Assembly (NCBI GenBank): GCA_947631385.1
Contig: CANRLE010000002.1
Location: 1-58,466 of the forward strand
Direction: 5' to 3'
Source of the DNA: an uncultured Clostridia bacterium
GTDB lineage: Bacteria > Bacillota > Clostridia > TANB77 > CAG-508
DNA: 58,466 nt
Shown here: piece after piece, positions 8,603 to 33,194 of the stretch
How positions within the stretch are numbered: the stretch's first letter is position 1
Layout of the letters: the number at the start of each line of letters is the position of its first letter
Made by a program: the position numbers and the translations under genes
The notes under the pieces: model-generated
Databases searched by the model: none
Told to the model about the DNA's origin: nothing
Seen by the model: the letters and a program-made list of their open reading frames with translations, nothing else

Positions 8603-8610
8603 AAGGAAAA

Positions 8611-13073: not shown

Positions 13074-14395
13074 GAATAAGGAAAAAATAGGATTAATAAT
13101 TCCAGCTTGTTCAGATTTAAATAGGGGAGATCAAGCATTAGTTTTAGAAACGATGAGAGTAATGAAAAAAGCTTTACAAATAAAAAAAGTTTATATGATG
13201 TCTAATAATGAAGTGAATCAATGTGAAAAATTTGGATTGACACCATTTAAAAGCATATTGAAACATCCATCTAGAGCTACAAAACATACAAGTAACTTAA
13301 AGTATAATAAAATGCTAAAATTAAAGTGGGGAATAGTAGCATCTTTTGATTTTATTGTTTCAATGATGTTGTTAAATAATATAACAAGGAATATAATAAA
13401 AGTATTTTTAAATAAAGAAACCAAAGAATCTTTGAGATTATATGAAAAAGCTGATGCTATATTTGTTAAAGGTCGGAGGTTTTATGCATGATTATGCAGG
13501 TGGAATAATTGGGAGATATACTATGTATTATCAATTATTCCATATAAGATTAGCATTAAAAATGAAAAAACCAGTATATATTATGCCAAATTCATTTGGA
13601 CCTTTTAAAAGTCAAAAAAATGTAAAAATACTAAATAAAATATTAGACAAATGTAAATTTATATCTGCAAGAGAAAGTATCTCTGCAAGTAAAACATCAA
13701 ATGGTTTAAATAGAGATATTCCATTATTTCCAGACTTAGGATTTTTTTTACAAGGAGAAGAAAAACAGAACATAGAAAAATATTTAGAGAAATACAGTAT
13801 AAATTTACATGAAGAAAAATATGTTGCAATTACAGCTAGACCATATCGTTTTTATAATACAGAAAATCCAGAATATAGATATGAAATGTATAAGCAAAGT
13901 TTTGTACAAATAATAGAATATATTTCTTCTTTAGGTTATGTACCACTTTTAGTTGTGCATACAAGAGCACAAAATAATCATGAAAATGATGAGATATGTA
14001 TTCAAGAAATAGTTAAATGTTTGAGCAAGAATTGCAAATATATAATTATTAAAGATGATGATCTCACTTGTAGAGATTTAAAAACTATATATGGTATATG
14101 TGATGCTATTATTGGAACACGTTTTCATTCTGTAATATTTTCTATAGACAATGGTGTTCCAGCTATTGCTGTTACGTATGGAGGAAATAAGGGACAAGGT
14201 ATAATGAAAGATATGGGATTAGAAGAATATGCTATAAAAATAGAGGAAATGAATTATGAAACATTGAAAGCAAAGTTTGATAAACTACTATTAGATAAAG
14301 AAGAAATAAAAATAAAAATTAATAATTATATAGAAAAGTCAAATGTCGAGTATGAAAAAATGATAAAAGAGATACAGATGTTGGAGGAAAATTAA
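13066..14395 (+). pseudogene. Polysaccharide pyruvyl transferase (CsaB/WcaK family), frameshifted
   Basis: ORFs 13066-13491 and 13442-14395 join if the C at 13474 is removed. That restores ...ADAIFVKGGGFMHDYAGG..., the family GGG motif. C-terminal GTRFHSVIFS. Confidence 0.65.
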
Positions 14396-15571: not shown

Positions 15572-16691
15572 GTGCAAGAATACACAAATATTATTTATGT
15601 AATAACTATAATATTAGCTAGTTTATTAGCTGGAATAGCACAAATATTAGCAAAAGATAAAAATGGAAAATATAAATTGAATCGTTTTTTTTGGATAGCT
15701 TCTATGATAGTATTAATTTTTATAATGGGATTTAGAAATATAGGGGTTGGAATAGATGATTTATCATATCAGAGAATTTTTAATAAGGTAAGGAATATAC
15801 GGACCAATACAACATTTTTTTAATACAACGATGGAGCCTGGTTATTTAATGCTAAATTATGTAGTGGGAATATTTACTGATAATTTTCAAGTTTTGATAG
15901 TTATAATTTCAATTATTGGAATTTCATTTTTTTATAAAGCATTAGAATATGAAAGAAAAAATATCAATTTAGGTTTAAGTGTATTTTTATTTACTAGTAT
16001 ATTTTATTTTTATTACATAGGAATTATGAGATTATTTATTGCTGCAAGCATTACGGCTTTTGCTTTTAGATATGTAGCAGAAAAAAAGACTATAAGATAT
16101 ATTATTTGGATTTTAATAGCTACAATGTTTCATTATTCAGCATTATTTATGCTATTTTTAGTATATTTCTCAACAGAAAAAGAAGAAAAACAAAGAAAAA
16201 TGAAAAATATTATTTTGTTAGTTACAGTAGCAATGCCAATTATAATATACATTGTATCTAAATTTATATTTCCGAATATGGGAGCGAGATATAGCGAAAA
16301 TTATACAACTTTAAATGATTTAAAATTTTCTATTAATCAATTTGATAAATTACCTATTGTATTGTTAGCTTTTTTCCTATATAATGATATGAAAAAACAA
16401 AACAGATATATAAAAATTTATATCGTAATGTATACTTTAGCTATTGTAATAGGAATTTATTCTACTGTACTTAGTATAGGAAGAATTCAATGGTATTTAA
16501 GTTATGTAATTTGTATAATTTTTCCACAGATAGTAAGAACGGTTTTAAATTCTAAATTTAAAAATTTTGTAGTATTATTAATACCTCTTATTATAATGTA
16601 TGGTAGTATTTATGCATATCGAATTATTTATCTTGAGCCTACTTTTTATGGAATTAGAAATTATAGTAATATATTTTTTATAAATAAGTGA
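15572..16691 (+). pseudogene. EpsG-family / Wzy-like polysaccharide polymerase, frameshifted at a T7 tract
   Basis: ORFs 15572-15823 and 15831-16691 are both multi-TM, with GVGIDDLSYQRIF then EPGYLMLN (EpsG-like). Removing one T from T7 (15815-15821) gives the continuous reading ...RTNTTFFNTTMEPGYL... Confidence 0.6.
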
Positions 16692-18950: not shown

Positions 18951-20057
18951 ATGGGAAAATATGATTTTTTAATTGTTGGTGCGGGATTATTTGGTTCTAC
19001 TTTTGCATTTGAAATGACAAAATTAGGAAAGAAATGTTTAGTAATTGATAAGAGAAACCATGTGGGAGGAAATATATATTGTGAAAATATAAATAATATA
19101 AATGTACATAAATATGGTGCTCACATATTTCATACAAATAACAAAAAGATATGGGAATATGTTAATCAATTTGTAGAATTTAATAATTTTATTAATACCC
19201 CAATTGCAAATTTTAGGGGAGAAATATATAATATGCCATTTAATATGAATACTTTTTGTAAATTATGGAATATATCAAAGCCAGAAGAAGCAAAGAGAAT
19301 AATAGAAAAACAAAAAGAAGAGGCAGGAATCGAGCAACCACGTAATCTTGAAGAACAAGCAATATCACTTGTTGGAAAAGATATTTATGAAAAATTAATT
19401 AAGGGATATACAAAGAAGCAATGGGGAAAAAATTGTAATGAATTACCAACATTTATTATAAAAAGACTTCCTGTAAGATTTACTTATAATAACAATTATT
19501 TTAATGATAGATATCAAGGAATTCCTGTAGGAGGATATAATATAATTATTGAAAAAATGTTAGAAAAATGTGATATTAGACTAAATGTTGATTATTTAAA
19601 AGAAAGAGAAAAATACAAAGATTTTGCAGATATGATACTATTTACAGGTATGATAGATGAGTATTTTGACTATAAATTAGGAAATTTAGAATATAGGAGT
19701 TTACAATTTAAAAATGAAATCTTTAAAGATATTGATAATTATCAAGGAGTAGCAGTAGTAAATTATACAGATGAAAACACGCCATATACAAGAGTAATCG
19801 AACATAAGCATTTTGAATTTGGTAAACAAAAAGGAACGATTATTACTGAAGAATATCCTATAAACTGGGAAAGAGGAAAAGAAGCATATTATCCTATTAA
19901 TGATGAAAAAAATTCAAAGTTATATCATGAATATTTAGATTTAGCACAAAATGAAAAAAATGTTATTTTTGGTGGAAGATTAGGAAACTATAAATATTAT
20001 GATATGGATAAAGTAATAGAAGAAAGCCTAATATTAGTAAGAAATTTTAAAGGATAA
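18951..20057 (+). CDS. glf: UDP-galactopyranose mutase, second copy
   Basis: Colinear with 1712-2812 over the full length (roughly two-thirds identical by eye). Carries the same motifs. Confidence 0.9.
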   Translation: MGKYDFLIVGAGLFGSTFAFEMTKLGKKCLVIDKRNHVGGNIYCENINNINVHKYGAHIFHTNNKKIWEYVNQFVEFNNFINTPIANFRGEIYNMPFNMNTFCKLWNISKPEEAKRIIEKQKEEAGIEQPRNLEEQAISLVGKDIYEKLIKGYTKKQWGKNCNELPTFIIKRLPVRFTYNNNYFNDRYQGIPVGGYNIIIEKMLEKCDIRLNVDYLKEREKYKDFADMILFTGMIDEYFDYKLGNLEYRSLQFKNEIFKDIDNYQGVAVVNYTDENTPYTRVIEHKHFEFGKQKGTIITEEYPINWERGKEAYYPINDEKNSKLYHEYLDLAQNEKNVIFGGRLGNYKYYDMDKVIEESLILVRNFKG

Positions 20058-20091: not shown

Positions 20092-21270
20092 ATGAGAAAA
20101 GTAAAAGAAATAATGATAAAAGTATTTAAATATTATAATTATATTTATCAGAGTATTTTTAATAAAGTATTACAAAAAAGAAGAAAAAAAAGAAATATAT
20201 TGTTGTATTGTGTATCTTCTACAATGGAACCCCATTTGATGGACTATTACAAATGTATAAAGAAATTACAAAATACAAATATATATTTATATTATAATAA
20301 TATAAGCAATAAAAAAATAGAAGATTTTAAAAAATATATAGAAAATGAAACTAGAATAACGTATTTAAAAAATAAATTACTGGCGAGAATCAAACATTAT
20401 GATTTAGTAGTATCAGCTGATTTGGCATTACCTTTTAGATTTAATAAGTATGCAATACCATGTTTATTTGTTAATCATGGATTACATATTATATCTTTTG
20501 ATGAGGAGCGAAATTTATATACTTATGGTAAAAATTGTTTAGATGATAAAAATAATATAATGTTTACTAAAATGCTAGAATCTAATTCTAGAATTGCGAA
20601 AGAAGTTATTAAAGACAATAACAGTTTTGCTAATATTATTGAGCCTGTAGGGTATAAATTTGCAGAGGAAATAAAATCAAATAAAGTGAAATATGAAGAA
20701 TATCGAAAAAAATTAAATGTACATAAAGACGAAAAGTTAGTATTAGTTTTTGGAAGTTATAATTCTACTAGTTTATTCCATGTAATTGGAAAAAAACTAA
20801 TTGATGAAGCAAAAGAAATAATGAATAAAGACAAATATAAATTTATTCTATCTATTCATCCATTAGAATATCAAAAATATAGTGAAAATATTCAGCCACT
20901 AGGTGAATGGATTGAAAGTCAGAAAAAATATGGCTTTATAGTAAGAAATCCAAAAGAAGACTATATACCTTATTTAATATCAAGTGATATAGTAATATGT
21001 GATTATTCATCTTTGTGTGAAGCAACATTAATTGCTAATAAACCATTAATATTAAGTGAATTTGATAGAAATAGAGTTTCTAAATATTCTATTGAAGATA
21101 AAATTATGAATATTGTACCTATTTTTACAAAAGAAAAATCATTAAAAGAAATGTTAAAAAATATTAAAACACAAAATTTAAATAAGTATGTTCAAGAAAT
21201 AGATGTAACAAGAAATGAGTATGAACAAAAAGTGCTTTCTATAACTAAGGAGTTGTTAAATTTAAAATGA
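20092..21270 (+). CDS. CDP-alcohol (glycerol/ribitol-phosphate type) phosphotransferase, TagB/TagF-like
   Basis: C-terminal SIHPLEY...YLISSDIVICDYSSLCEATLIANKPLIL resembles the Glyphos_transf signature (HP...sDllITDYSSv.fE...l.kPii). Confidence 0.55.
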   Translation: MRKVKEIMIKVFKYYNYIYQSIFNKVLQKRRKKRNILLYCVSSTMEPHLMDYYKCIKKLQNTNIYLYYNNISNKKIEDFKKYIENETRITYLKNKLLARIKHYDLVVSADLALPFRFNKYAIPCLFVNHGLHIISFDEERNLYTYGKNCLDDKNNIMFTKMLESNSRIAKEVIKDNNSFANIIEPVGYKFAEEIKSNKVKYEEYRKKLNVHKDEKLVLVFGSYNSTSLFHVIGKKLIDEAKEIMNKDKYKFILSIHPLEYQKYSENIQPLGEWIESQKKYGFIVRNPKEDYIPYLISSDIVICDYSSLCEATLIANKPLILSEFDRNRVSKYSIEDKIMNIVPIFTKEKSLKEMLKNIKTQNLNKYVQEIDVTRNEYEQKVLSITKELLNLK

Positions 21271-22808
21271 GAAAATTTAATTCTATAAAAAATATCATAT
21301 ATGGTGTGCTGGGACAAGTTATTTTAATATTTTCAAAATTTATTACAAATAAAATTTTTATAAATATGCTAACAGTTGAATATTTAGGAGTTAATAGTTT
21401 ATTTACTAATATATTATCTATTTTAAATATATCGGAGTTAGGAATTTCTACAGCTGTTTCATTTTCATTATATAAAGAGCTGGCAAATAAGGATGAAAAA
21501 AATATAAGCGCAATAATGAATTTTTATAAGAGAGCATATTTTATTGTAGGGTGTATTATATTAGTATTAGGATTAATAATACTTCCTTTTATACAAAACT
21601 TTATTAATACAGATACAGTTATTCCATATTTAAGATTAATTTTTATTTTATATTTATTACAATCAATAGTTTCATATTGGTTTTATGCATATAAGTCTAC
21701 AATTTTGATAGCAGATCAAAAGCAATATATAGTAACTAATAGACAGAATTTATTATCTGTATTAACAAATATTTTACAAATTATTATATTGATATGCTTT
21801 AAGTCTTTCATATTTTATGTTATAATAGGAGTTGTATTTAATATATTAAAAAATTTAGTAATTGCTCGTAAAGTAGATAAAGAATATCCTTTTCTAAAAA
21901 ATGGTAAGAAAGAAAAAGTAGGTGAGAAACAAAAAAAGGCATTATATAAACAAATAATTGGAGTTTCTACTTATAAAATTAGTGGAACAGTCTTGAATTC
22001 TACTGATAATATTATAATATCTAAATTTATCAATATAGCTACTACTGGAATTTATTCTAGTTATTTATTGATAGCATCAGCTATCTCTAATATAGCTAAT
22101 ACAATTTTCAATGCGATGACAGCAAGTATAGGAAATTTAAATGCAACAGAAACAAAAGAAAAAAATGAATTTATATTTAAGTGTCTATCATTTATGAATT
22201 TTTGGGTATTTGGATTTTGTGCAATTTGTTTATTAGTGCTATATAATCCGTTTATAACTATCTGGTTAGGAAACGAATACACATTTAATATATATATAGT
22301 TATTCTTATTGTATTTAATTTTTTGACAGATGGACTAAATCAAGTAGTTACAATATATAAAGATGCTTGTGGAGTTTGTTGGCAAGGAAAGTTTAGACCT
22401 ATTGTAAGTGCAACTTTAAATTTAGTGATATCCATAATATTAGTGCAATATATTGGAGTTGCAGGTGTTATTTTAGGAACAATTTTAAGTAGATTTCTTT
22501 CAACATGGTGGTATGATTCTAGACTTATATACAAAAATGTATTTGAAAAAAACGTAGTATGCTATTATAAAAAATATTTGAAAAATTTATTAATTATTAT
22601 TTTATGTGGGTTAATATGCTATAAGCTATCAACGATTATAGTTTTGAATAATGAAATTTTTAATTTTATTGTTGATTGTATAATTTGTATAATTATACCA
22701 AATATACTATTTTATATATTTTTTAAAAATACAGAAGAATTTAAATATTTATCTAATATTGTGAAAGATTTTGTACAGAAGAAATTGAATTTTATTTCAA
22801 AAACATAA
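21267..22808 (+). CDS. Wzx/MOP-family polysaccharide flippase (full length)
   Basis: 513 aa with about 12-14 TM segments and typical MOP-family architecture. The start overlaps the upstream stop. Confidence 0.8.
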   Translation: MRKFNSIKNIIYGVLGQVILIFSKFITNKIFINMLTVEYLGVNSLFTNILSILNISELGISTAVSFSLYKELANKDEKNISAIMNFYKRAYFIVGCIILVLGLIILPFIQNFINTDTVIPYLRLIFILYLLQSIVSYWFYAYKSTILIADQKQYIVTNRQNLLSVLTNILQIIILICFKSFIFYVIIGVVFNILKNLVIARKVDKEYPFLKNGKKEKVGEKQKKALYKQIIGVSTYKISGTVLNSTDNIIISKFINIATTGIYSSYLLIASAISNIANTIFNAMTASIGNLNATETKEKNEFIFKCLSFMNFWVFGFCAICLLVLYNPFITIWLGNEYTFNIYIVILIVFNFLTDGLNQVVTIYKDACGVCWQGKFRPIVSATLNLVISIILVQYIGVAGVILGTILSRFLSTWWYDSRLIYKNVFEKNVVCYYKKYLKNLLIIILCGLICYKLSTIIVLNNEIFNFIVDCIICIIIPNILFYIFFKNTEEFKYLSNIVKDFVQKKLNFISKT

Positions 22809-22847
22809 TTGCATTGATATATAATAAATAAAAGGGAGGATAATTGT

Positions 22848-23990
22848 ATGAAAAAAATGAATGAAATTGAGCAAGTTATTATACTTGCAGCTGGGCGCAG
22901 CCGTAGGATGGAACACTTAAGCAAAAGTAAACCTAAATGCTTATTAGAATATAATGAAGAAATAATATTATGCAGATTAATTAGACAAATTAAATCATAT
23001 GGAATAAAGAAAATTGTAGTAACGATAGGATATAGAGCTGATTTAATGAAACAACTATTTAAAAATGATGAAGATGTTATATTGGTAGAAAATAAGTTAT
23101 ATGAAGAAGATGTTAATATTCAATCAATGAATTTAGCATTGTCTAAAATAGATGGACCTTGTGTTATTTTTGAAGCAGATACTCTAATGGAAGATGATTT
23201 GGTTAAATATGTTTTAGGATCAGATTTCGAAGGAAAATCAGTATGGTTCACTAAAGGTAAATTTGTTAATCCGCAATATGGAGGAATATTAAAGTCTGAT
23301 AAATATGGTAATGTGACTGATATAAAGATAATTCCAACTTATCAATCAAATTATGAAGATTATTCAAAACTATCAGGGTTAATGAGAATTGGAAAGAATG
23401 AAATAGAAACATTCAAGCAATTAGTATCAAAATATGCTAAATCTACAATAAAGCAGTATTACTTAGTTCCATGGATTGAAAATTTAGAACTATTAAAGTG
23501 TGAAGAAGCAGATATTAGCCAGTTTGAATTTTTTACATTTAATAAGCCAGAGGAATATTATCAAGTTATAAATAGAAAGATTGGAGTATTGCAAGATACA
23601 CCACCTGTAGAATACATAGATATAGAAAAATTAAAACCAATTGAAAACTTTGATATAAACAGAGTAAATGAATTAGAAGAAAAAATTAAAAAGGACAAAT
23701 ATTGGACAGTACCTTTAATAGTTGAAAATAAATATAATATGATACTAGATGGACATCATAGATTTGAGGTAGCAAAACGTTTAAAACTAAAACGAGTACC
23801 AGCTATAATTGTTGATTATAATGATATAATGGTTTGGTCTTTGAGAAAAGAGATAAAAGTTTCACAAAGTATAGTTAAAAGAAAAGTTATTAACCAAAAA
23901 TCAATTTATCCATATAAAACAGTTAAGCATAAATATAATTTTAATATTCCAGTATTAAAAAATGTATTAATAGATAAGGAGCTAAAATAA
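22848..23990 (+). CDS. Fusion protein: LicC/MobA-like nucleotidyl(cytidylyl)transferase plus a C-terminal ParB/Srx-fold domain
   Basis: The N-terminal part (VIILAAGRSRRM...KPKCLL...VVTIGYRADL...VIFEADTL...YLVPWIENL) is colinear with LicC-type enzymes. The C-terminal part (IDIEKLKPIENF...LEEKIKKDKYWTVPLIV...MILDGHHRFEVAKRLKLKRVPAIIVDY) is a ParB N-terminal/sulfiredoxin-like motif. Confidence 0.65.
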   Translation: MKKMNEIEQVIILAAGRSRRMEHLSKSKPKCLLEYNEEIILCRLIRQIKSYGIKKIVVTIGYRADLMKQLFKNDEDVILVENKLYEEDVNIQSMNLALSKIDGPCVIFEADTLMEDDLVKYVLGSDFEGKSVWFTKGKFVNPQYGGILKSDKYGNVTDIKIIPTYQSNYEDYSKLSGLMRIGKNEIETFKQLVSKYAKSTIKQYYLVPWIENLELLKCEEADISQFEFFTFNKPEEYYQVINRKIGVLQDTPPVEYIDIEKLKPIENFDINRVNELEEKIKKDKYWTVPLIVENKYNMILDGHHRFEVAKRLKLKRVPAIIVDYNDIMVWSLRKEIKVSQSIVKRKVINQKSIYPYKTVKHKYNFNIPVLKNVLIDKELK

Positions 23991-25195
23991 TGATACAAAT
24001 AAGATCTATCACTTATAATATGCCTAAAAATATAGTAGAAGAGAATGGTAAAAAAATAAAAGAAAATATATCGTTATGGGAAAAGCAATCATTTTTTATA
24101 AGAACTAAACGAATAAGTTGTACACCTGTATATGAAAGTATATCTAAAGAACAAATTGATATTGTAAAAAAAATATGTGATGAATGTGATATTAGATGGT
24201 TTAATATTCCCATTAATCCATGGAAAGCAAAAAATAGAAAAGCACTATTCAGATTTGCATATAATGTATTAAAAACATATAATCAAGCTTTTGTTAATAT
24301 TCTATGCATAAAAAATCAGGAACTTGATTTTGATATAATTAATGATTCTATAAGGCTTACACAGTTAACCAGTACAATTAGTAGTAATGGAAAAGATAAT
24401 TTTAGATTAGGAATATCTACTAATATTGAACCTAATTGTCCTTTTTTTCCTTTTTCATTTTCATCAGGAGAATTTTCTTTTTCAATTGCATTAGAATTAA
24501 CACAAGAAATTAATTCTATTATAAAAGAAAATTATAGATTAGATTTAAATAAATTGAGAGATGCTATTATATCAACTATAGTTCCTCAAATTAAACAAAT
24601 AGAACTAACAGCAAATGAAATATCTGAAAAAACAGGTTTAAAATTTATGGGATTTGATTTTTCACTAGCTCCAATAATTGATGAAAATGGAAGTGTAATA
24701 ACTATATTAAAGCATTTAGGAATAAATGAGTTTGGAAAGAATGGAACTATGTTTGCCACAGCATATTTGACGAATATTCTAAAATCTTTTGGAAATTATT
24801 TTAAACATGTTGGATTTTCGGGAGTTATGTATTCTTTACTTGAAGATTTAGAATTGTGTAAAATAAACAATAATATAGGAGTAAATTTAGAGGATTTAAT
24901 AAAATTATCAACAATGTGTGGATGCGGAGTAGATATGGTTCCAATTGCAAGTGATGTGAAAGATGATGAAATTAGGTCTATTATTCTAGATGTAGCTGCA
25001 ATTTCATGTAGATTAAACAAACCATTAGGAATAAGATTATTGCCAATACCTAGAACTAAAAATGGACAAGAGTCATATACAAATTTTAATGAAGATGCGG
25101 ATTTTATATCAAATACTAAAATTATAGATATATGTAATAATTGCATAATAGACAATGACATACAGACGTTTAAATTATTGAAATTAAACGATTAG
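23990..25195 (+). CDS. DUF711 / UPF0210 family protein (function unknown)
   Basis: IRSITYNM at the N-terminus. GFDFSLAPI...GSVITILKHLG...GTMFATAYLTN...FSGVMYSLLED...LSTMCGCGVDMVPI...DVAAIS...LGIRLLPIP is colinear with UPF0210 proteins such as pneumococcal SP_0239, recalled from memory. Confidence 0.6.
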   Translation: MIQIRSITYNMPKNIVEENGKKIKENISLWEKQSFFIRTKRISCTPVYESISKEQIDIVKKICDECDIRWFNIPINPWKAKNRKALFRFAYNVLKTYNQAFVNILCIKNQELDFDIINDSIRLTQLTSTISSNGKDNFRLGISTNIEPNCPFFPFSFSSGEFSFSIALELTQEINSIIKENYRLDLNKLRDAIISTIVPQIKQIELTANEISEKTGLKFMGFDFSLAPIIDENGSVITILKHLGINEFGKNGTMFATAYLTNILKSFGNYFKHVGFSGVMYSLLEDLELCKINNNIGVNLEDLIKLSTMCGCGVDMVPIASDVKDDEIRSIILDVAAISCRLNKPLGIRLLPIPRTKNGQESYTNFNEDADFISNTKIIDICNNCIIDNDIQTFKLLKLND

Positions 25196-25433: not shown

Positions 25434-27215
25434 GTGAAACAGTTAGAATATCCATTTGATGAAAATTATTTAATAAAAAATAAGAAAAAAATAAAAAAAG
25501 AGTTACTACAAAAAGATGATTTAATAGAAAAAAACATAGCAATATTAGGAGGTTCAACTACTAGTGAAATAAAAAATATGTTAGAAATATTTTTACTAAA
25601 TTATGGAATTAAGCCCAATTTTTATGAATCAGAATATAATAAATTTTATGAAGATGCTATATTTGGAAATGAAGAGTTAGATAATTTTAAACCTGATATT
25701 ATATACATTCATACTACTAATAGAAATATTATGGAATATCCTAATATGTATGATGATGAAAATACAATTGTTGACAAACTTAATATGGAATATGAAAAAT
25801 TTAAAAAAATTTGGGATAAACTTTTTTCTAAATTTGATAGTACAATCATTCAAAATAATTTCGAATATCCATATTATAGATTATTAGGAAATAAAGATGC
25901 GGTTGATATTCATGGAAAGACGAATTTTATTACAAAGCTAAATCAAAAATTTTATGATTATGCAAATGTGACAAAAAATTTCTTTATTAATGATATTAAT
26001 TATATATCTTCTTGTTATGGCTTAGATAGATGGGCAAATCAATTTTATTGGCATATGTATAAGTATGCAATGGAAGTGCCAGCAATTCCATATTTATCAT
26101 TCAATTTAGCAAACATTATAAAATCAATATATGGAAAAAATAAAAAAGCACTAGTTTTAGATTTAGATAATACTTTATGGGGAGGAATAGTTGGAGATGA
26201 TGGAGTAGAAAATTTAGCTATAGGTCCAGAAGTACCAAGTGGACAAGTTTTTTCAGAATTTCAAAATTATTTAAAAGAACATAAAAATTTAGGAATTATA
26301 TTAAATGTAAACTCTAAAAATGAATATGAAAATGCAATTGCAGGACTTAATCATCCAGCAGGAACATTAAAACCAGATGATTTTATAATAATAAAAGCAA
26401 ATTGGAATCCAAAAAATTTAAATATAAAAGATATAGCAGAAGAATTAAATTTAGGAGCAGACAGTTTCGTATTTGTTGATGATAATCCGGCAGAAAGAAA
26501 AATAGTACAAAATTATATAGAAGGAATAGCTACGCCAGAAATAGATATACCAGAGAATTATATAAAAATAATAGATCACAATGGATATTTTGAAGTAACA
26601 AACTTTTCAAATGAAGACTTAAAGAAAAACGAATTATATAAAGATAATGCTAAAAGAAGCCAAATGATGGCGACATTTGATAATTATGAAGATTATCTAT
26701 TGTCATTAAAAATGAAAGCAGAAATAACAACATTTAAACCAATATATTTGGAAAGAATATCACAATTAAGCAACAAAAGTAATCAATTCAACTTAACAAC
26801 TAAAAGATATTCTTTAGCAGATATAGAAGCAGTAAATAATGATGACAATTATATAAAACTATATGGAAAATTAGAAGATATATTTGGAGATAATGGAGTT
26901 ATAACTGTTGTAATAGGAAATATAAAAAACAAAGATGAATTGCACATCGATTTATGGATAATGAGCTGTAGAGTTTTAAAAAGAAATATGGAATTTGCAA
27001 TGATGGACATGTTAGTAAAAAAAGCGCAGGAAAAAGGAATAAAAACTATATATGGATATTATTACCCAACAGCTAAAAATAAAATGGTTAATAATTTTTA
27101 CGATTTGCAGGGATTCGAAGAGATTTCTTGCGATGAGAAAGGAAATAAAAAATATAAGTTAGATATATCTAAGGGATATACTAATAAAAATAATGTAATA
27201 GAGGTGAATGAATGA
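25434..27215 (+). CDS. FkbH-like / HAD-superfamily subfamily IIIC enzyme (carrier-protein loading phosphatase-acyltransferase)
   Basis: Hallmark LVLDLDNTLWGGIVGDDGVENLAIG, then FVDDNPAER, then a GNAT-like C-terminus (NQFNLTTKRYS...WIMSCRVLKRNME). Confidence 0.8.
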   Translation: MKQLEYPFDENYLIKNKKKIKKELLQKDDLIEKNIAILGGSTTSEIKNMLEIFLLNYGIKPNFYESEYNKFYEDAIFGNEELDNFKPDIIYIHTTNRNIMEYPNMYDDENTIVDKLNMEYEKFKKIWDKLFSKFDSTIIQNNFEYPYYRLLGNKDAVDIHGKTNFITKLNQKFYDYANVTKNFFINDINYISSCYGLDRWANQFYWHMYKYAMEVPAIPYLSFNLANIIKSIYGKNKKALVLDLDNTLWGGIVGDDGVENLAIGPEVPSGQVFSEFQNYLKEHKNLGIILNVNSKNEYENAIAGLNHPAGTLKPDDFIIIKANWNPKNLNIKDIAEELNLGADSFVFVDDNPAERKIVQNYIEGIATPEIDIPENYIKIIDHNGYFEVTNFSNEDLKKNELYKDNAKRSQMMATFDNYEDYLLSLKMKAEITTFKPIYLERISQLSNKSNQFNLTTKRYSLADIEAVNNDDNYIKLYGKLEDIFGDNGVITVVIGNIKNKDELHIDLWIMSCRVLKRNMEFAMMDMLVKKAQEKGIKTIYGYYYPTAKNKMVNNFYDLQGFEEISCDEKGNKKYKLDISKGYTNKNNVIEVNE

Positions 27216-27460
27216 TGGAAAATCAAGAAATTTATGAAAGGTTAAACAATGTTTTTAGAGATATATTTGATGACGAAAGCATTGTAGTAAAACCAGAAAC
27301 AACATCTAATGATATTGAAGATTGGGATAGCTTGGAACATATCAATTTAGTTGTTGCAGTAGAGCAAGAATTTGGAATGAAATTTAACATGAACGAAGTA
27401 ACAACAATGAAAAATGTTGGAGACATGGTGAAAATTATTCTTGAGAGAAAGACTAAATAG
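27212..27460 (+). CDS. Acyl/peptidyl carrier protein (DltC/ACP-like)
   Basis: 82 aa and acidic. EDWDSLEHINLVVAVEQEFG carries the DSL phosphopantetheine-Ser motif. The start overlaps the FkbH stop. Confidence 0.8.
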   Translation: MMENQEIYERLNNVFRDIFDDESIVVKPETTSNDIEDWDSLEHINLVVAVEQEFGMKFNMNEVTTMKNVGDMVKIILERKTK

Positions 27461-27483
27461 AAAAATGAAAGTGAGAAAGTGAA

Positions 27484-27906
27484 ATGAACGAATACAAATT
27501 TGAAGACATAAAAATTGGAATGGAAGAACAATTTCAAGTTTCTATTACTGATAAAATGGTACAGTCATTCCGTGAAATAACAGGAGATATTAATCCTTTA
27601 CATAACGATTTAGAGTATGTAAAATCTAAGGGCTATAACCAAAAAGTTATTTATGGAATGCTTACTTCCTCATTTTTGTCAACTTTAGCAGGAGTATATA
27701 TTCCAGGTAAATATAGTCTTATACATAGTGTAGAGATCTTATTTAAAAAACCTGTATTCATTTCAAGTAGTCCTTTAACAATAAAAGGAAAAGTAACAGA
27801 AATAAATGATGTATTTAAATGCTTTACAATGAATGTAGAAATTTTAAATAATAAAAATGAAAAAGTATTAAGAGGAAAAATGAAAGTAGGAGTTATAAAT
27901 GAGTGA
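27484..27906 (+). CDS. MaoC-like (R-hydratase/dehydratase) hot-dog fold protein
   Basis: FREITGDINPLHNDLEYVK...VIYGML is the MaoC dehydratase motif (D-x-N-P-x-H). 140 aa. Confidence 0.75.
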   Translation: MNEYKFEDIKIGMEEQFQVSITDKMVQSFREITGDINPLHNDLEYVKSKGYNQKVIYGMLTSSFLSTLAGVYIPGKYSLIHSVEILFKKPVFISSSPLTIKGKVTEINDVFKCFTMNVEILNNKNEKVLRGKMKVGVINE

Positions 27907-28633
27907 GAAAGTATTATTAGTAACAGGTGCATCTTCAGATATAGGAGTAAGTCTAATAAATAAAGTAAATAAAGATTATGAGTATATTATTGCGCATCAT
28001 AACAGTGATGCTAATAATTTAGTAGAACTTAAAGAAAAACTAGGAGAAAAATTAATTCTTATAAAAGGAAATTTTAAAGATGAAGGTGCAACATATAAAT
28101 TTGTAGAAGATATTAAAGAAATTGGAAAAATACCAACACATATTGTGCATTTACCAGCAGGAAAAATTGAAAATTTAAAATTTCCTAAATTAACATGGGA
28201 TAAATTTCAAGACGATTTAAATATAGCACTTCGTTCGTTAGTTATTATTTTAAATAGTTTTTTACCAATTATGGCTAAAAATAAATGTGGGAAAATAATT
28301 ATTATGCTAACTTCTTATACAACCAATATTCCTCCTAAATATTTAGCAAGCTATGTGACTTCCAAATATGCTCTATTAGGACTATTGAAAGCACTTGCAA
28401 ATGAGTATTCTGATAAAGGAATAAGAATTAATGGTATTTCTCCGTCTATGATAGAAACAAAATTTTTAAAAGACATTCCAGAATTAATTATAAAGCAAAA
28501 TGCAATGAATAGTCCAACTGGAAAGAATTTATCAATAGATGATGTGGTTCCAATGTTTCAGTTTTTATTGTCAGAGGAAGCAGATAGTATTACTGGACAG
28601 AATATAGCAATTACTAATGGAAATATCATGTAA
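27899..28633 (+). CDS. Short-chain dehydrogenase/reductase (FabG-like SDR)
   Basis: VLLVTGASSDIG (TGxxxxxG) and catalytic YVTSKYAL (YxxxK). 244 aa. Overlaps the upstream gene. Confidence 0.8.
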   Translation: MSEKVLLVTGASSDIGVSLINKVNKDYEYIIAHHNSDANNLVELKEKLGEKLILIKGNFKDEGATYKFVEDIKEIGKIPTHIVHLPAGKIENLKFPKLTWDKFQDDLNIALRSLVIILNSFLPIMAKNKCGKIIIMLTSYTTNIPPKYLASYVTSKYALLGLLKALANEYSDKGIRINGISPSMIETKFLKDIPELIIKQNAMNSPTGKNLSIDDVVPMFQFLLSEEADSITGQNIAITNGNIM

Positions 28634-28653
28634 TAGAAGGAGGAAGAATAATT

Positions 28654-30195
28654 ATGGTTTTAACATCTTTTGTTTTCCTAATATTTTGTGTGATTACTAT
28701 ATTTATATATTATATTGTTCCAAAAAAGTTGCAGTGGTGTATTTTATTAATATCAAGTATTATTTTTTTGTTTTGGAATAATTTTAGTATATCAACAGTT
28801 ATACAAGCATTAATAGTTTTAATTCCAACTTATATTTTAGGAAGATTAATAGATAAAAATTATAATACAGAAAAAGCAAAAAAATTTTTAATTTTAGGAA
28901 TTTTAATAATTTTAGCACAATTAATTTATTTAAAATATACAAATTTATTTTTAACAACGGCTAATCATATATTTAATTTATTTAATATAGAGTATAAATT
29001 TAACCTTATATATAGAAATTCTTTGATAGGAATTAGTTATTATTCTTTAATTATGATTAGCTATTTAGTAGATATATACCGAGGAACTTGCAAAGCACAA
29101 AAAAACATATTAAAGTGTGCATTGTTTATGTCATATTTTCCAATACTTACTTCAGGACCATTTGTTAGATATGATAATATGGAAAATCAATTATATGAAA
29201 AACATAAGTTCAATTATAAAAATTTGTGTAATGGATTAATTAGAATTTTATGGGGAATGTTTAAAATATTAGTTATTTCTGAAAGATTAGGAATGATAGT
29301 AAATAGTATTTATGGAAATTTAAATGAATTTAACTTTATATTTATTTTTATGGCTGCTATTTTATTTCCTATACAATTATATACTAATTTTTCAGGTTCT
29401 ATTGATGTGATTATGGGAACATCAGAAATTATAGGAATCAAATTGCCAGAAAACTTTAGTTTACCATTTTTTTCAAGGACACTTGCAGAATTTTGGAGAA
29501 ATTGGCATATTACATTAGGGGCTTGGCTTAGGGATTATATTTTTTATCCATTACAAAAATCTAATGTTATGCAAAACCTAAACAAGAAATGCAAGAATAT
29601 ATTCGGTAAAAAAATTGCTAGAAAAATATCTATGTATCTTTCAATGATAATAATGTGGACATTAATAGGAATTTGGCATGGAGGAGCTTATACATATATA
29701 ATTGGTTCAGGATTATTACAATTTTTATTCATTTTTTTAGAAGATATATTAGGTCCAACTTCTAAAAAGATAAATAATAAATTAGGAATCAATACAGAGG
29801 TATTTAGCTATAAATTATACCAAGTAATAAGGACTTATTTGTTATTTTCTTTTGCTATGATTTTCTTTAAGGCTAATAGTGTAACTAATGCTATTGACAT
29901 TATAAGAGGGATTTTCACAATAAGTTTTAGTTCGCTATTTAGTAAAGAAAGGATTTATGCAATGATAAATAATATTGGACTAGATATGTTTGACTTCATA
30001 ATTTTAGTTGTTGCATTAATAGTATTATTTGGTATTCAATTATTAGCACGCAAAGGAAAGATTAGAGAAAAATTGTTTAATCAAAATATTGTATTTAGAT
30101 GGGTAGTTATTTATACTTTAATATTTGGAGTTATAATATTTGGATGCTATGGAGCTGGATATAATCCTACTGCTTTTATATACAGACAATTTTAA
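28654..30195 (+). CDS. MBOAT-family membrane O-acyltransferase (DltB/AlgI-like)
   Basis: Multi-TM. FWRNWHITLGAWLRDYIFYPL contains the invariant MBOAT His. 513 aa. Confidence 0.85.
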   Translation: MVLTSFVFLIFCVITIFIYYIVPKKLQWCILLISSIIFLFWNNFSISTVIQALIVLIPTYILGRLIDKNYNTEKAKKFLILGILIILAQLIYLKYTNLFLTTANHIFNLFNIEYKFNLIYRNSLIGISYYSLIMISYLVDIYRGTCKAQKNILKCALFMSYFPILTSGPFVRYDNMENQLYEKHKFNYKNLCNGLIRILWGMFKILVISERLGMIVNSIYGNLNEFNFIFIFMAAILFPIQLYTNFSGSIDVIMGTSEIIGIKLPENFSLPFFSRTLAEFWRNWHITLGAWLRDYIFYPLQKSNVMQNLNKKCKNIFGKKIARKISMYLSMIIMWTLIGIWHGGAYTYIIGSGLLQFLFIFLEDILGPTSKKINNKLGINTEVFSYKLYQVIRTYLLFSFAMIFFKANSVTNAIDIIRGIFTISFSSLFSKERIYAMINNIGLDMFDFIILVVALIVLFGIQLLARKGKIREKLFNQNIVFRWVVIYTLIFGVIIFGCYGAGYNPTAFIYRQF

Positions 30196-30211
30196 GGAGG
30201 GAAATTATGTA

Positions 30212-31243
30212 ATGAAAAAAAATATAATTAAATCAATTGTATTTATATTCATTTTTTGTGCTATTTTATTTATTATTACTAAAATACTATGGTTGCCACC
30301 AAATGCTATTTCTTATTTTTATAAAGAAAAAGAAAATTCTTTAGATGTTGTTTATGTTGGAAGTAGTAATGTGTTGGCTCATTTTAATACAACGTTAGCA
30401 TATAATTTATATGGATATACAACAGGCATTTTATCTTCAAATGCGCAACCATTTGCTTTGATAAAGTATTTACTTAAAGAAGCAGAAAAATATCAAAATC
30501 CAAATTTATATATTGTAGATATAACAAAGATAACGGATGATATAGATTACTTTTCAACAGAAAATATTAGAGAATGCGTTGATAGTATGAAATTTTCTAG
30601 AAATAGAATAGAAGCAATTAATGAAGCATTAAGTTATAGAAAAGATGTTAGTAAGAATGAATATATAAATTATTATTTTAGTTTTTTAATGTATCATAAT
30701 AGATGGAAATATAATCCTAAGACTAATATTGTAGGAAACAAAAATTTTTATAAAGGATATTGGTTTACAAAAGAAACTTGTGAAGTAGTACCACAAAATA
30801 CCTATACTTGGAAAAAAGATTTAGTACCATTACAAGAAGATAATAAAAAAATATTAATAAGCTTAATTAATTATATTAATCAAAATAATTTAAAAGTATT
30901 ATTCGTAGTTCCTATAAGGTGTTATGATGAAGAACGAAATGGAAGATTGAATGATGCTATACGAATATTGCAAGAAAATGAATTAAATGTTATTAATTTT
31001 AATACATTAAACGATTTTGATGATATAGATTTTAGTAGGGATTTATATAATGAAGCACATTTGAATGTTTATGGAGCAACTAAATATACATTGTATTTTG
31101 CTAAATACTTAAAGGAAAATTATGAATTAGAAGATCATAGAAATGATGAAAATTATAGTTCATGGAACAAAGAATATGAAAGATTTAAAGAAAACTTTAA
31201 AAAAATGGTTAATAAAAATTATGAGGAATTGTTACAAAAATAA
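30212..31243 (+). CDS. Membrane-anchored extracytoplasmic DltD/SGNH-like acyl-transfer partner protein
   Basis: An AGGAGG RBS precedes ATG 30212; the ORF track's 30140 start overlaps the MBOAT gene. N-terminal TM, a VYVGSSNV block (compare GSSE in DltD) and C-terminal DLYNEAHLN (D..H). The family call is tentative. Confidence 0.45.
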   Translation: MKKNIIKSIVFIFIFCAILFIITKILWLPPNAISYFYKEKENSLDVVYVGSSNVLAHFNTTLAYNLYGYTTGILSSNAQPFALIKYLLKEAEKYQNPNLYIVDITKITDDIDYFSTENIRECVDSMKFSRNRIEAINEALSYRKDVSKNEYINYYFSFLMYHNRWKYNPKTNIVGNKNFYKGYWFTKETCEVVPQNTYTWKKDLVPLQEDNKKILISLINYINQNNLKVLFVVPIRCYDEERNGRLNDAIRILQENELNVINFNTLNDFDDIDFSRDLYNEAHLNVYGATKYTLYFAKYLKENYELEDHRNDENYSSWNKEYERFKENFKKMVNKNYEELLQK

Positions 31244-31340: not shown

Positions 31341-33194
31341 ATGCAAAAGCGAAAAATAGCAATAACAATTTTAATATTAGCAATCGTGTTATTATTAACA
31401 CCAAAAGCACAAGCAACTGAAAAAGACATCACGCAAACCTTTGTTGATCAAAATTTGCAAAATAGCATATTGGAACTTGCTAAAAATGCTACAGGAGATG
31501 AAAATAAAACAAAAATTTATGAATCCGATATCGATAAAATAGTTGAGAAAGTAGGAGGAACATCCTTAAAACTACAAAATAAAGGAATCAAAAGTTTAGC
31601 AGGTATAGAAGCATTTGCAAATAAAGAAGTTACATGGATTTTCCTTGACTGGAATGAGATTACAGATTTAAATCCATTAAAAACATTCAAAAATTTAACC
31701 AAGATATCTTTTAGTGGTAATCAAGTAAGCGACTTAACACCATTAGCAAGTGTTACAACTTTAGAAAATATAATAGCTATTAACAATAAAATAAGTTCTA
31801 TTGATACAATTAAAAACCTAACTAATATAAAATATATTTGCTTAGATGGAAATAATCTTACAAATATAAATGCTATAACTGATTGGAGCAACTTAATAGA
31901 ATTATCATTTCAAAACAACAAAATTACTGAGATACCTAATTTGGAAAAATTAACACAATTAAATTCAATTAATATTAGTAATAATCAAATTCAAACTATT
32001 AATAATATGGCAAAATTAGAAAGCATAGAAAATTTAGAAATTAATAACAATTTACTTGCCTCATTAGAAGGAGTACAGAATCTTATTAATCTAAAAATAC
32101 TAAGTTGTAGCAATAATCAGCTTAAACAGATTTCCGGATTAGAAAGGCTTTCAAATTTAGAAAATGTAGATTTCAATAAAAATCAAATACAAGATATTAA
32201 TAAACTAAAACAAAATATGAAAATAAAGTACTTATATTTAGATAGTAATGTAATTTTAGATTTTAGTACATTAGAACAATTACCTAATTTACAAAAATAT
32301 AGTATTTATAATCAAAGCATATTCATTGAAGTTAAGGAAAAACTAGTAGGAGATTATATATTAGTTCCATTACCAGATTTATATAGTGCTCTATATAATA
32401 CTAATTCATTTATACATCAAAATAATCTTACTACAGAAGCAATAGGAACTAATTATTATGAAGTTGATAAAAGCAAAAAGAATATAAAACTAAAAGCAAA
32501 TGATTTAAAACGTAATAATATAACAATTCGTGTTTTTGATAATAATAACACATTTTTAACTTATACAATTCAGGCAGACAAAATTGCACCTGTCATAGAG
32601 GGCGTTATTAATAATAAAACTTATATAGAAGAATCTGTTATACCAATTTGCGACGATGATGATATTGGAGATGTACAATTAACAAAAAATGGATTAAAAG
32701 TAGTATATAATTTAGGAGATACTATTAAGGATAATGGAAAATATATATTAAGAATTAGTGACAAAGCGGGAAATCAAGCTACTGCTCAATTTGAAATAAG
32801 AGATGAAATAATAGAAAGTGATACATATAAAATAGATGGACAATATATTACAGGAATTACTTCAAATACAGATTTTAATAATTTTAAGAAATTATTAAAA
32901 ACAGAAGGAAACTATAATATTTATCGAGAAAATCAAAAACTATCAGCTAATCAAATAATCGTGACAGGAGACAAATTGACAACTCAATATGGAAAGAATT
33001 TTTATTTAGTAGTAAAGGGTGATATTACAAAGGATGGATATGCTAATATCAGCGATTTAGTTCGATTAAGAAAATATATACTAAAAATAGATCAATTTAG
33101 TGAATTAGAAAAAAAGGCAGCTGATTTAAGCGGAGACAAAAAAGCAGACATTCAGGATTTGGTATATATTAGACAAACTATAATAAATAAATAA
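31341..33194 (+). CDS. Secreted leucine-rich-repeat (internalin-like) protein with a C-terminal dockerin domain
   Basis: Signal peptide (...TPKAQA/TE). About 11 x 22-aa LRRs (LxxLxxLxLxxNxIxxIxxL). C-terminal duplicated Ca-loop/helix segments GDITKDGYANISDLVRLRKYIL and ADLSGDKKADIQDLVYIRQTII. Confidence 0.7.
   Translation: MQKRKIAITILILAIVLLLTPKAQATEKDITQTFVDQNLQNSILELAKNATGDENKTKIYESDIDKIVEKVGGTSLKLQNKGIKSLAGIEAFANKEVTWIFLDWNEITDLNPLKTFKNLTKISFSGNQVSDLTPLASVTTLENIIAINNKISSIDTIKNLTNIKYICLDGNNLTNINAITDWSNLIELSFQNNKITEIPNLEKLTQLNSINISNNQIQTINNMAKLESIENLEINNNLLASLEGVQNLINLKILSCSNNQLKQISGLERLSNLENVDFNKNQIQDINKLKQNMKIKYLYLDSNVILDFSTLEQLPNLQKYSIYNQSIFIEVKEKLVGDYILVPLPDLYSALYNTNSFIHQNNLTTEAIGTNYYEVDKSKKNIKLKANDLKRNNITIRVFDNNNTFLTYTIQADKIAPVIEGVINNKTYIEESVIPICDDDDIGDVQLTKNGLKVVYNLGDTIKDNGKYILRISDKAGNQATAQFEIRDEIIESDTYKIDGQYITGITSNTDFNNFKKLLKTEGNYNIYRENQKLSANQIIVTGDKLTTQYGKNFYLVVKGDITKDGYANISDLVRLRKYILKIDQFSELEKKAADLSGDKKADIQDLVYIRQTIINK

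Follow-up and report, generated by a model that had tools for sequence, protein, structure and literature searches.

A four-gene module within a polysaccharide locus

The DNA analysed here, hereafter the window, is a 58,466-nucleotide stretch from an uncultured Clostridia bacterium (NCBI GenBank assembly GCA_947631385.1, contig CANRLE010000002.1, positions 1 to 58,466), and our subject is a module of four consecutive genes at 20092-25195 that would decorate a surface polysaccharide with a phospho-linked head group. Given a G+C content of ~25%, together with genes encoding PolC, a sortase and CpsB/C/D-like capsule regulators, we take the window to be chromosomal DNA of a low-GC Firmicute. A Wzx/Wzy-type polysaccharide locus spans 3.6-31 kb of the window; its early genes encode an LCP protein, a CapD-like dehydratase and a Bac_transf initiating transferase, followed by several GT4 and GT2 glycosyltransferases, a pyruvyl transferase, an EpsG/Wzy-like polymerase and Glf, and then by the four genes in question.

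The four open reading frames (ORFs) are those named in the original prediction, all on the + strand: a TagF-like protein with a Glyphos_transf domain (20092-21270, 392 aa), predicted to be a phosphotransferase of the CDP-alcohol type (CDP, cytidine diphosphate); a Wzx-like multi-pass membrane protein (21267-22808, 513 aa); a 380 aa fusion protein (22848-23990); and a DUF711 protein resembling GlyXL (23990-25195, 401 aa). The fusion joins a LicC/PntC-like N-terminal domain (residues 1 to ~245, 22848-23582) to a C-terminal domain of the ParB/Srx fold (residues ~246-380, 23583-23990). Every string quoted in that prediction is present, namely DIVICDYSSLCEATLIANKPLIL in the TagF-like protein and LAAGRSRRM, DGHHR and VPAIIVDY in the fusion, as is the TAATG junction at 23988-23992, in which the TAA stop codon of the fusion (23988-23990) overlaps the ATG of the DUF711 gene (23990-23992). 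Shine-Dalgarno sequences precede both genes, and the overlap indicates that they are translationally coupled. The polysaccharide locus of the window contains no other CDP-alcohol-forming gene of the TagD, TarI or LicC type, no further kinase for the pathway proposed below, and neither a methyltransferase nor a flagellin gene, both of which occur in related loci such as L172.

We regard it as probable, if well short of certain, that the four genes form a head-group decoration module of the capsule or exopolysaccharide locus, employing a CDP-amino-acid-type donor in a four-step mechanism. This keeps, as the best reading, the earlier proposal that a fused kinase and cytidylyltransferase serve the TagF-like enzyme, while DUF711 provides or alters the head group. 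The domain identities, the conservation of catalytic-type residues and the gene linkage on which it builds are directly established.

The fusion family and its nucleotidyltransferase domain

Related loci were collected in a census by tblastn and jackhmmer, giving genome loci L001-L007, assembly loci L074-L081 and L168-L172, and 54 metagenome loci (L082-L135). Queried with one fusion sequence, a genome scan returned no match, and an alignment-based rescan was dominated by generic nucleotidyltransferases, with 7 true loci among them; a scan that used the C-terminal domain by itself recovered the fusion loci. We refer to the fusion and its DUF711 neighbour as the cassette.

Capsule loci are mosaics, and elsewhere in this assembly one gene at least, the Wzy-like one, is probably frameshifted (at a T7 run), which lends some plausibility to the view that the four genes are neighbours by chance, or that the fusion is a frameshift or assembly artefact. 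That view is refuted, and we give it a negligible probability. At least 120 protein clusters of 374-385 aa (55-80% identity) share the fused architecture across phyla, drawn from Butyrivibrio, Beduini, Clostridiaceae, Bacteroidales, Prevotellaceae and Coriobacteriia; the conserved family, of ~378 aa, also has members in marine or sediment bacteria; an alignment of 26 fusion sequences has a mean column identity of 62%, with invariant residues in both halves; and AlphaFold models the whole fusion as a single confident body (predicted local distance difference test, pLDDT, 93; predicted template modelling score, pTM, 0.88). DUF711 is adjacent to the fusion at every informative locus, the two genes are translationally coupled in the window, and the same four-gene order recurs in L169.

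The N-terminal domain matches Pfam NTP_transf_3 at 43.8 bits against a gathering threshold (GA) of 27 (E=4e-11). Its closest relatives in the PDB by phmmer are LicC (1jyk, 7e-7) and PntC (6pd1, 2e-6), and Foldseek ranks PntC-AEPT first, with LicC 1jyk at a template modelling (TM) score of 0.82 (normalised to LicC) and a root-mean-square deviation of 3.1. The motifs LAAGRSRRM and YEEDVNI are invariant in the 26-sequence alignment. From these nearest relatives, and from the CDP-dependent transferases that accompany the cassette, the domain is predicted to be a CTP:phospho-X cytidylyltransferase, specific for cytidine triphosphate (CTP) and acting on a phospho-amine.

The C-terminal domain and its stand-alone relatives

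The C-terminal ParB/Srx assignment made in the original prediction holds (Pfam ParB_N, 28.6 bits against a GA of 26.3), and the domain can now be placed on the free-serine-kinase branch of this fold. Among NCBIfam models its best ParB-fold match is the ADP-dependent serine kinase SerK (1.5e-10), followed by SbnI (1.6e-5). A family profile built from fusion C-terminal domains plus their stand-alone relatives (A3) matches T. kodakarensis SerK (5x0b) at E=5.7e-17 and SbnI at 4e-10, as against only ~1e-5 to 1e-3 for genuine ParB/Noc clamps. The alignment of this profile to SerK falls into two segments, the ParB/Srx core (SerK 14-119) and a C-terminal motif (SerK 204-241) in which SPKTTRH of SerK corresponds to YPYKTVKH of the family; the family thus appears to be SerK minus an internal insert of ~85 residues, or a 'minimal SerK', and we predict a small-molecule kinase of the serine type.

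Residues E266, D301-G-H-H-R305, K357, T358 and H361 are invariant in 26 fusion homologs, and the equivalent Glu, DG(H/Q)HR, K, T and H positions are invariant in the stand-alone relatives as well. E266 aligns with the Glu of the 'KPHEQ' motif of SerK, a position altered in the PDB variants 5x0j (to Q) and 5x0e (to A), and it is from these variant sequences that we assigned it as a catalytic-type residue.

An exhaustive search with the C-terminal domain yielded 1,044 representative clusters, 246 of them at E<=1e-10. About a third of the best 150 of these 1,044 are fused, a few are ~610-650 aa long, and the remainder are mostly stand-alone proteins of 120-170 aa. Stand-alone homologs on annotated plasmids and megaplasmids (145-157 aa, 28-37% identical, E 1e-12 to 1e-16) keep telling company. 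One lies directly upstream of SbnB-like and SbnA-like genes in Aureimonas; one lies with sbnA in the staphyloferrin B region of Ralstonia solanacearum; one adjoins SbnB-/SbnA-like genes on the Ti plasmid (pTi) of Agrobacterium fabrum (L166), in a cluster that also holds a LicC-like cytidylyltransferase and a CDP-alcohol phosphatidyltransferase; and one in Burkholderia gladioli is divergent from serC. The SbnA substrate, O-phospho-L-serine, is made by the ParB-fold kinase SbnI (PMC12704722). A position beside users of O-phosphoserine is the context expected of a free serine kinase, and on this contextual ground the C-terminal domain is predicted to phosphorylate free L-serine or an analogue.

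As a separate matter, the Ti-plasmid cluster (L166 704-9837) includes genes for a phosphoenolpyruvate (PEP) mutase, an aminotransferase, an oxidoreductase and a protein annotated as alanine racemase, and its product may contain a phosphonate or diaminopropionate.

The DUF711 partner

The gene at 23990-25195 encodes a PF05167 protein, as had been expected (192.8 bits, E=1.2e-56; PDB 2HA9, 5.5e-15), and the DUF711 proteins of the cassettes form a distinct subfamily of ~399 aa, one member of which is indexed in 213 blocks of the assembly collection. The fold is a ten-stranded barrel of the ribonucleotide reductase/pyruvate formate-lyase (RNR/PFL) type that lacks the radical glycine (PMC4390871). 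The earlier statement that DUF711 has no assigned function is outdated, since GlyXL members are genetically needed for glycine synthesis. The housekeeping DUF711 protein is now named GlyXL and its ACT-domain partner GlyXS; B. breve and M. maripaludis need both proteins to make glycine, the two together complement an E. coli glyA defect under aerobic conditions, S. pneumoniae spr0218 is linked to glycine prototrophy, and glyoxylate has been proposed as the product, with a pocket formed in the B. breve protein by R22, R75, R403 and E339 (GapMind 2026 preprint).

This pocket is retained in the window protein, where R5, R41, E285 and R349 correspond to R21, R74, E336 and R400 of a Listeria GlyXL and hence to GlyXL R22, R75, E339 and R403. 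In an alignment of 12 sequences (the window protein, ten subfamily members and the Listeria GlyXL) these four residues are invariant, as are C310, D315, K265 and K344. The two proteins are otherwise distant, the window protein being only 21% identical to the Listeria GlyXL and ~50 aa shorter, and its match to NCBIfam PRK05313, at 117 bits, falls below the cut-off of 440. In the Listeria example the ACT gene lies upstream of GlyXL in one operon, whereas no ACT (GlyXS) gene adjoins any cassette locus examined. The conserved pocket makes it probable that the ligand of the cassette DUF711 is a small anionic amino or oxo acid, on which the enzyme would act with GlyXL-like chemistry. Candidate reactions are the conversion of a phospho- or CDP-intermediate, the building of a non-standard hydroxy-amino acid, and decarboxylation to an ethanolamine-type group, the last disfavoured by the racemases that accompany the cassette (see below). 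We also considered that DUF711 might stand in for the missing SerK insert, and rejected this because short stand-alone kinases exist without DUF711.

The conserved unit and its partner transferases

Co-occurrence of the fusion with DUF711, proposed earlier as a check, proved to be without exception. In all of the ~45 non-redundant cassettes with enough downstream DNA, in which the kinase is fused or adjacent to the LicC-like domain, DUF711 lies directly downstream; it is absent where a stand-alone kinase occurs without this nucleotidyltransferase (NT1), as in L123, L124, L131 and L134. The TagF-like gene was originally taken as a member of the pathway, and in the window it would be one; across loci the conserved unit is the fusion plus DUF711, and the transferase is interchangeable among three types. 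The pairing with CDP-alcohol-type phosphotransferases accordingly extends well beyond the window. A TagF-like partner occurs in the window, in L169 (identical four-gene order), in L080-L090 (the same four gene types, from an organism common in the human gut, whose cassette is likewise accompanied by a homolog of the Wzx-like protein of the window) and in L172. LicD is the commonest partner (Butyrivibrio, Bacteroidales, Coriobacteriia and others), and CDP-OH_P_transf enzymes take this place in Beduini and many environmental loci, in one case as a fusion with a methyltransferase. The donors of all three families are CDP-linked. That three unrelated CDP-donor transferase families alternate beside one cassette is strong contextual evidence that its product is a CDP-activated group.

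Kinase-nucleotidyltransferase coupling also recurs independent of homology. NT1 and the kinase are separate adjacent genes in L125, L128, L129 and L133, and in L124 and L131 a stand-alone kinase is paired with a non-homologous HxGH nucleotidyltransferase. The latter two are environmental contigs rich in glycosyltransferase-like genes, with conserved synteny (L124 9941-11534, L131 9983-11537): a SerK-like protein of 126-139 aa bearing the KTVKH motif, then the HxGH (NMNAT/CTP_transf_like) nucleotidyltransferase and a methyltransferase, and no DUF711. Environmental cassettes (L102-L133) carry a second MobA-like nucleotidyltransferase (NT2) between kinase and DUF711, with a methyltransferase just upstream; in L106 (9341-11164) NT2 is fused into a 607 aa three-domain protein, and the methyltransferase is fused to a CDP-alcohol phosphotransferase.

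The TagF-type call on the window enzyme is sound (PF04464, 34.3 bits against a GA of 22.1, in a match that is nearly full-length). A phmmer search of the PDB with this protein found no match by sequence; its AlphaFold model (pLDDT 88) supports the fold, with TarL in complex with CDP-ribitol (8va1) and TagF (3l7j/k/m) as the best Foldseek PDB matches (E ~1e-12, TM ~0.55-0.6). N128-H129-G130, H256-P257 and a D-Y motif are invariant in the subfamily; the catalytic histidines of TagF we take to be H444 and H584. The subfamily is rare, comprising 19 clusters of single-domain proteins such as this one, and its closest homologs always adjoin either a LicC-type nucleotidyltransferase or the cassette: the nearest relatives that lack a cassette overlap a stand-alone LicC-type nucleotidyltransferase 30% identical to the fusion N-terminal domain.

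The Wzx-like protein is the weakest domain call. The flippase assignment made earlier fits its size, its position in the locus and its full-length homolog in L081; its family scores fall short (Polysacc_synt 25.0 bits, GA 28.2; NCBIfam WZX_like 28 bits, cut-off 300). With that homolog, a 511 aa protein downstream of DUF711, it shares 27% identity from end to end (E=4e-40), and a 513 aa protein occupies its position in L169. It is a probable repeat-unit flippase, homologs of which accompany the cassette in two other lineages.

Neighbouring genes and the nature of the head group

At ~14 loci an Asp/Glu-family racemase gene is directly adjacent to the cassette. These racemases are closest to the cysteate racemase CuyB and to aspartate-type racemases, and they retain both catalytic Cys residues, for which reason we rejected the idea that they are decarboxylases resembling arylmalonate decarboxylase. 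Many loci have an adjacent small class I methyltransferase dependent on S-adenosylmethionine (SAM). [quoted passage not shown] The original prediction spoke of a phospho-alcohol. A CDP-activated phospho-group is still favoured; because of the SerK homology, the racemase and methyltransferase neighbours and the precedent of CDP-threonine in C. difficile, the head group is probably an amino acid or derivative (serine/threonine type) instead of a simple alcohol.

The same neighbours bear on a different scheme, in which the cassette makes phosphoethanolamine or phosphocholine de novo: the kinase would yield O-phosphoserine, DUF711 would decarboxylate this (or CDP-serine) to phosphoethanolamine, from which the LicC/PntC-like domain would form CDP-ethanolamine, methyltransferases at other loci would lead on to N-methyl forms or CDP-choline for LicD, and in the window the TagF-like enzyme would add phosphoethanolamine. 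The scheme has the merit of giving DUF711 a defined job, its Arg3/Glu pocket would fit O-phosphoserine, and LicC and PntC, the closest solved relatives of the N-terminal domain, both act on 2-aminoethyl-phosph(on)ates. LicD, moreover, is classically a phosphocholine transferase, and as the commonest partner it often stands with methyltransferases. We nevertheless find it rather improbable. A two-Cys racemase, as found at the ~14 loci, would be pointless if decarboxylation destroyed the stereocentre; decarboxylase chemistry is not known for DUF711 or for the RNR-like barrel; the genetic role of GlyXL, in glycine/glyoxylate metabolism, gives no pointer to phosphoserine decarboxylation; and the flagellin-linked L172 parallels an N-methyl-phospho-amino-acid system instead.

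Comparison with known systems

The nearest published pathway is that of the C. difficile Type A flagellin glycan, in which N-acetylglucosamine (GlcNAc) is phosphodiester-linked to N-methyl-L-threonine by the products of ftaABCD (cd0241-cd0244), and for which CDP-threonine was shown in 2026. FtaA (ThrH-like) is proposed to produce phosphothreonine from phosphoserine, and FtaB (LicC-like) to make CDP-threonine; FtaC has been demonstrated to be a CDP-threonine N-methyltransferase, and FtaD a TagF-like CDP-N-methylthreonine:GlcNAc phosphotransferase. We likened the window module to FtaB, FtaC and FtaD by way of these pathway descriptions. As in FtaABCD and the P. aeruginosa b-type system (PA1088-1091), the pathway would run from a phospho-hydroxy-amino acid through LicC-like CDP activation to TagF-like transfer onto a sugar hydroxyl. 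LicC-like and TagF-like genes share an operon here too (window, L169, L080-L090, L172), and L172 lies directly downstream of flagellin with GT2, TagF-like and methyltransferase genes. The SAM N-methyltransferase that acts on the CDP intermediate in Fta appears to be an optional element, since methyltransferases are found in related loci and not in that of the window. The phospho-donor enzyme and the nucleotidyltransferase, predicted by AlphaFold 3 to form a complex in Fta (FtaA-FtaB), are here fused.

The differences are equally plain. The generator of the phospho-compound is here a SerK-like ParB/Srx protein, unlike the HAD (haloacid dehalogenase) phosphotransferase of the ThrH/phosphoserine-phosphatase type in Fta; the window module contains no HAD/phosphoserine-phosphatase-like gene, the FkbH HAD domain encoded at 25434 belonging to another module. 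A strictly conserved DUF711/GlyXL-type enzyme is present that has no Fta counterpart, and a racemase often is. The transferase may be LicD or CDP-OH_P_transf instead of TagF-like, and the target in the window is a Wzx/Wzy polysaccharide, not flagellin.

Each domain has its own point of reference. With SerK (TK0378, 5x0b) and S. aureus SbnI the C-terminal domain shares the ParB/Srx fold, the catalytic-type Glu, DGHHR and a C-terminal P-x-K-T-x-x-H, and as with SbnI its short stand-alone relatives adjoin SbnA/SbnB or SerC; it differs from them in lacking SerK ~120-203 and the extra domain of SbnI, in being fused to a nucleotidyltransferase, and in bearing KTVKH in place of KTTRH. The N-terminal domain is structurally closest to LicC/PntC of the LicA/LicC/LicD and PntC systems, of which LicD is a frequent partner here, and LicCA is an analogous kinase-cytidylyltransferase fusion. 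Unlike LicABCD, the kinase here would be of the ParB/Srx and not the choline-kinase/APH fold, and the Lic system has no equivalent of DUF711 or the racemase; exogenous choline is an unlikely substrate. Like GlyXL-GlyXS, the cassette DUF711 belongs to PF05167 and has the RNR/PFL-like barrel, the Arg3/Glu pocket and the conserved Cys, Asp and Lys set, whereas it has no ACT partner and always stands beside a nucleotidyltransferase-kinase fusion in glycan loci. Finally, the TagF-like enzyme shares the Glyphos_transf domain with TagF, TarL and TarF, of which TarL (CDP-ribitol) and TagF are its best structural matches; it differs in probably adding a single substituent instead of a polymer, from a predicted donor other than CDP-glycerol or CDP-ribitol.

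Proposed pathway and alternatives

In the pathway we favour, the C-terminal ParB/Srx domain, as a SerK/SbnI-type kinase, would phosphorylate serine, or a close analogue such as threonine or a further hydroxy-amino acid, on its side-chain hydroxyl, and the LicC/PntC-like domain would join the resulting phospho-compound to CTP, giving a CDP-amino-acid-type donor by channelling within one polypeptide. DUF711, in the least certain step, would use its Arg3/Glu pocket for a small anionic amino or oxo acid and carry out an obligatory extra step on the amino-acid moiety, either making the substrate of the kinase or converting the phospho- or CDP-intermediate. The TagF-like enzyme would then take phospho-X from CDP-X and attach it to a hydroxyl on the repeat unit, which is still lipid-linked, releasing CMP, and the Wzx-like protein would flip the decorated unit. 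In other genomes the fusion and DUF711 would be plugged into LicD or CDP-alcohol phosphotransferases, with racemase and SAM methyltransferase producing D- and/or N-methylated variants. We infer all of this chemistry, and the identity of X, from homology and gene context.

Several observations weigh against this pathway. The NCBIfam equivalog cut-offs are far off (SerK 40.7 bits against 380, SbnI 24.4 against 350), and the C-terminal domain is missing SerK residues ~120-203, the insert of ~85 aa. Its terminal motif (fusion residues 355-362, window ~23910-23933) reads KTVKH in 120/120 close fusion homologs, and KT[V/A]KH in 36/48 fused representatives, versus KTT[R/K]H in SerK and in the stand-alone proteins found in SbnA/SerC contexts; this difference may be a specificity determinant, in which case the fused kinases may have a shifted substrate and serine itself may not be the compound they phosphorylate. 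A simple kinase-nucleotidyltransferase-transferase scheme leaves the conserved DUF711 unexplained, because the analogous Fta pathway needs no equivalent of it, and the NT2 domain or gene of the environmental variants is likewise unaccounted for. The window itself adds a caution: its EpsG/Wzy-like gene (15572-16691) is broken into two frames at a T7 run (15815-15821), with a Pfam match that begins only at profile position 46, and in its pyruvyl-transferase gene (13066-14395) the match begins at profile position 67 while an upstream ORF overlaps in another frame. Frameshift, phase variation or assembly error could account for these split genes, and the locus may be degraded or not fully functional in this genome, or its assembly imperfect. 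The ParB-CTPase fold, lastly, also serves as a pure NTP-binding switch (PMC12704722).

That last property underlies a reading in which the ParB/Srx domain is not a kinase at all and instead, as a CTP/NTP-binding regulator or scaffold, tunes the cytidylyltransferase, the phospho-compound being made elsewhere and DUF711 being unrelated or regulatory. As a versatile NTP-binding module, the fold occurs in fusions with many domains (PMC12704722), and the lost insert and low equivalog scores would be in keeping with such a role. We give it little credence all the same: the family profile is far closer to SerK/SbnI than to ParB clamps; the SerK Glu and the terminal K-T-x-x-H are invariant, and both lie outside the nucleotide-binding box; stand-alone homologs are found precisely where a supplier of O-phosphoserine is needed; and the locus encodes no other kinase for the pathway.

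The shifted motif and the presence of DUF711 could alternatively be accounted for together if DUF711 acts first, using GlyXL-like carbon-carbon bond chemistry to build a non-standard beta-hydroxy amino acid or hydroxy acid, which the KTVKH kinase would phosphorylate ahead of activation, the head group then being neither serine nor threonine. Full conservation of the GlyXL pocket points to similar substrates and reactions, the motif of the kinase departs consistently from the one found in true serine kinases, and a dedicated extra enzyme fits an unusual substrate better than it does serine or threonine, which are abundant. MobA-like nucleotidyltransferases are also capable of such an activation, CofC/FbiD acting on phospho-hydroxy acids. 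Set against this, the GlyXL reaction is not established, glyoxylate being only proposed; the KTVKH kinases of L124 and L131 operate with a nucleotidyltransferase and methyltransferase and without DUF711; and the racemase type argues for an alpha-amino acid, with which a non-standard one would be compatible. We consider this order of events unlikely.

Novelty and significance

The original prediction held the arrangement to be undescribed. Full-text literature searches found no account of the fusion, none of a part for DUF711 in decorating glycans and none of glycan-bound use of CDP-serine, and nothing relevant on a phosphoserine cytidylyltransferase with LicD or on PF05167; the concept of CDP-amino-acid decoration, on the other hand, was published in 2023-2026. 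Fusions to nucleotidyltransferases go unmentioned in a 2025 survey of ParB-CTPase fusions (PMC12704722). The pathway logic is already known from Fta, LicABCD and TagD/F, and what is new is the enzymes and their spread.

CDP-amino acids were shown to be real cellular metabolites only in 2026 (CDP-threonine, C. difficile), and the cassette would be a second route to such donors, with different enzymes and a far wider distribution, ranging over common human-gut taxa, rumen bacteria, Bacteroidales, and marine and sediment bacteria, in the setting of capsules, flagellin glycans and perhaps lipids. It also offers a likely catalytic job for the 'minimal SerK' branch of the ParB/Srx fold, and it ties a DUF711/GlyXL paralogue to a defined pathway, which could help to solve the chemistry of the GlyXL family. 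For immune recognition, phage adsorption and motility it matters whether surface glycans bear charged or zwitterionic phospho-amino-acid caps. A bolder version is possible but doubtful, in which the cassette makes an undescribed CDP-amino acid (CDP-serine or a non-proteinogenic hydroxy-amino-acid analogue), the DUF711/GlyXL barrel acts without a cofactor on phospho- or hydroxy-amino acids, and phospho-amino-acid capping of capsules, flagellar glycans and possibly lipids is widespread in gut Firmicutes, Bacteroidota and marine bacteria. On that version, a GlyXL paralogue obligatorily paired with a kinase of the serine type would provide a first chemical way into the GlyXL reaction of GlyA-independent glycine synthesis.

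Other features of the window

Directly after DUF711 lies a six-gene module (25434-31243) encoding an FkbH-like loader (TIGR01686, 255 bits), an acyl carrier protein (ACP), a MaoC dehydratase, an SDR reductase, an MBOAT/DltB-like membrane acyltransferase and a 344 aa protein to which no role is assigned. It looks like a system for ACP-dependent O-acylation of the polysaccharide with a modified glyceryl-derived acyl group. We considered these FkbH-ACP-MBOAT genes as part of the cassette pathway and rejected this, as they are absent beside the cassette at all other loci. Between the initiating transferase and an acyltransferase, genes for an HpcH/HpaI-type aldolase-like protein and an Ldh_2 protein (malate/L-lactate dehydrogenase 2 family; 7781-9651) hint at a further unusual acid substituent. 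UDP-galactopyranose mutase is encoded twice, in the 676-2812 region and at 18951-20057, and the former, at the left edge of the window, may belong to a second glycan cluster, given the GT2 gene and the MurJ-like fragment beside it. After the capsule locus, at 31341-33194, is a gene for a 617 aa leucine-rich-repeat protein with a type I dockerin domain.

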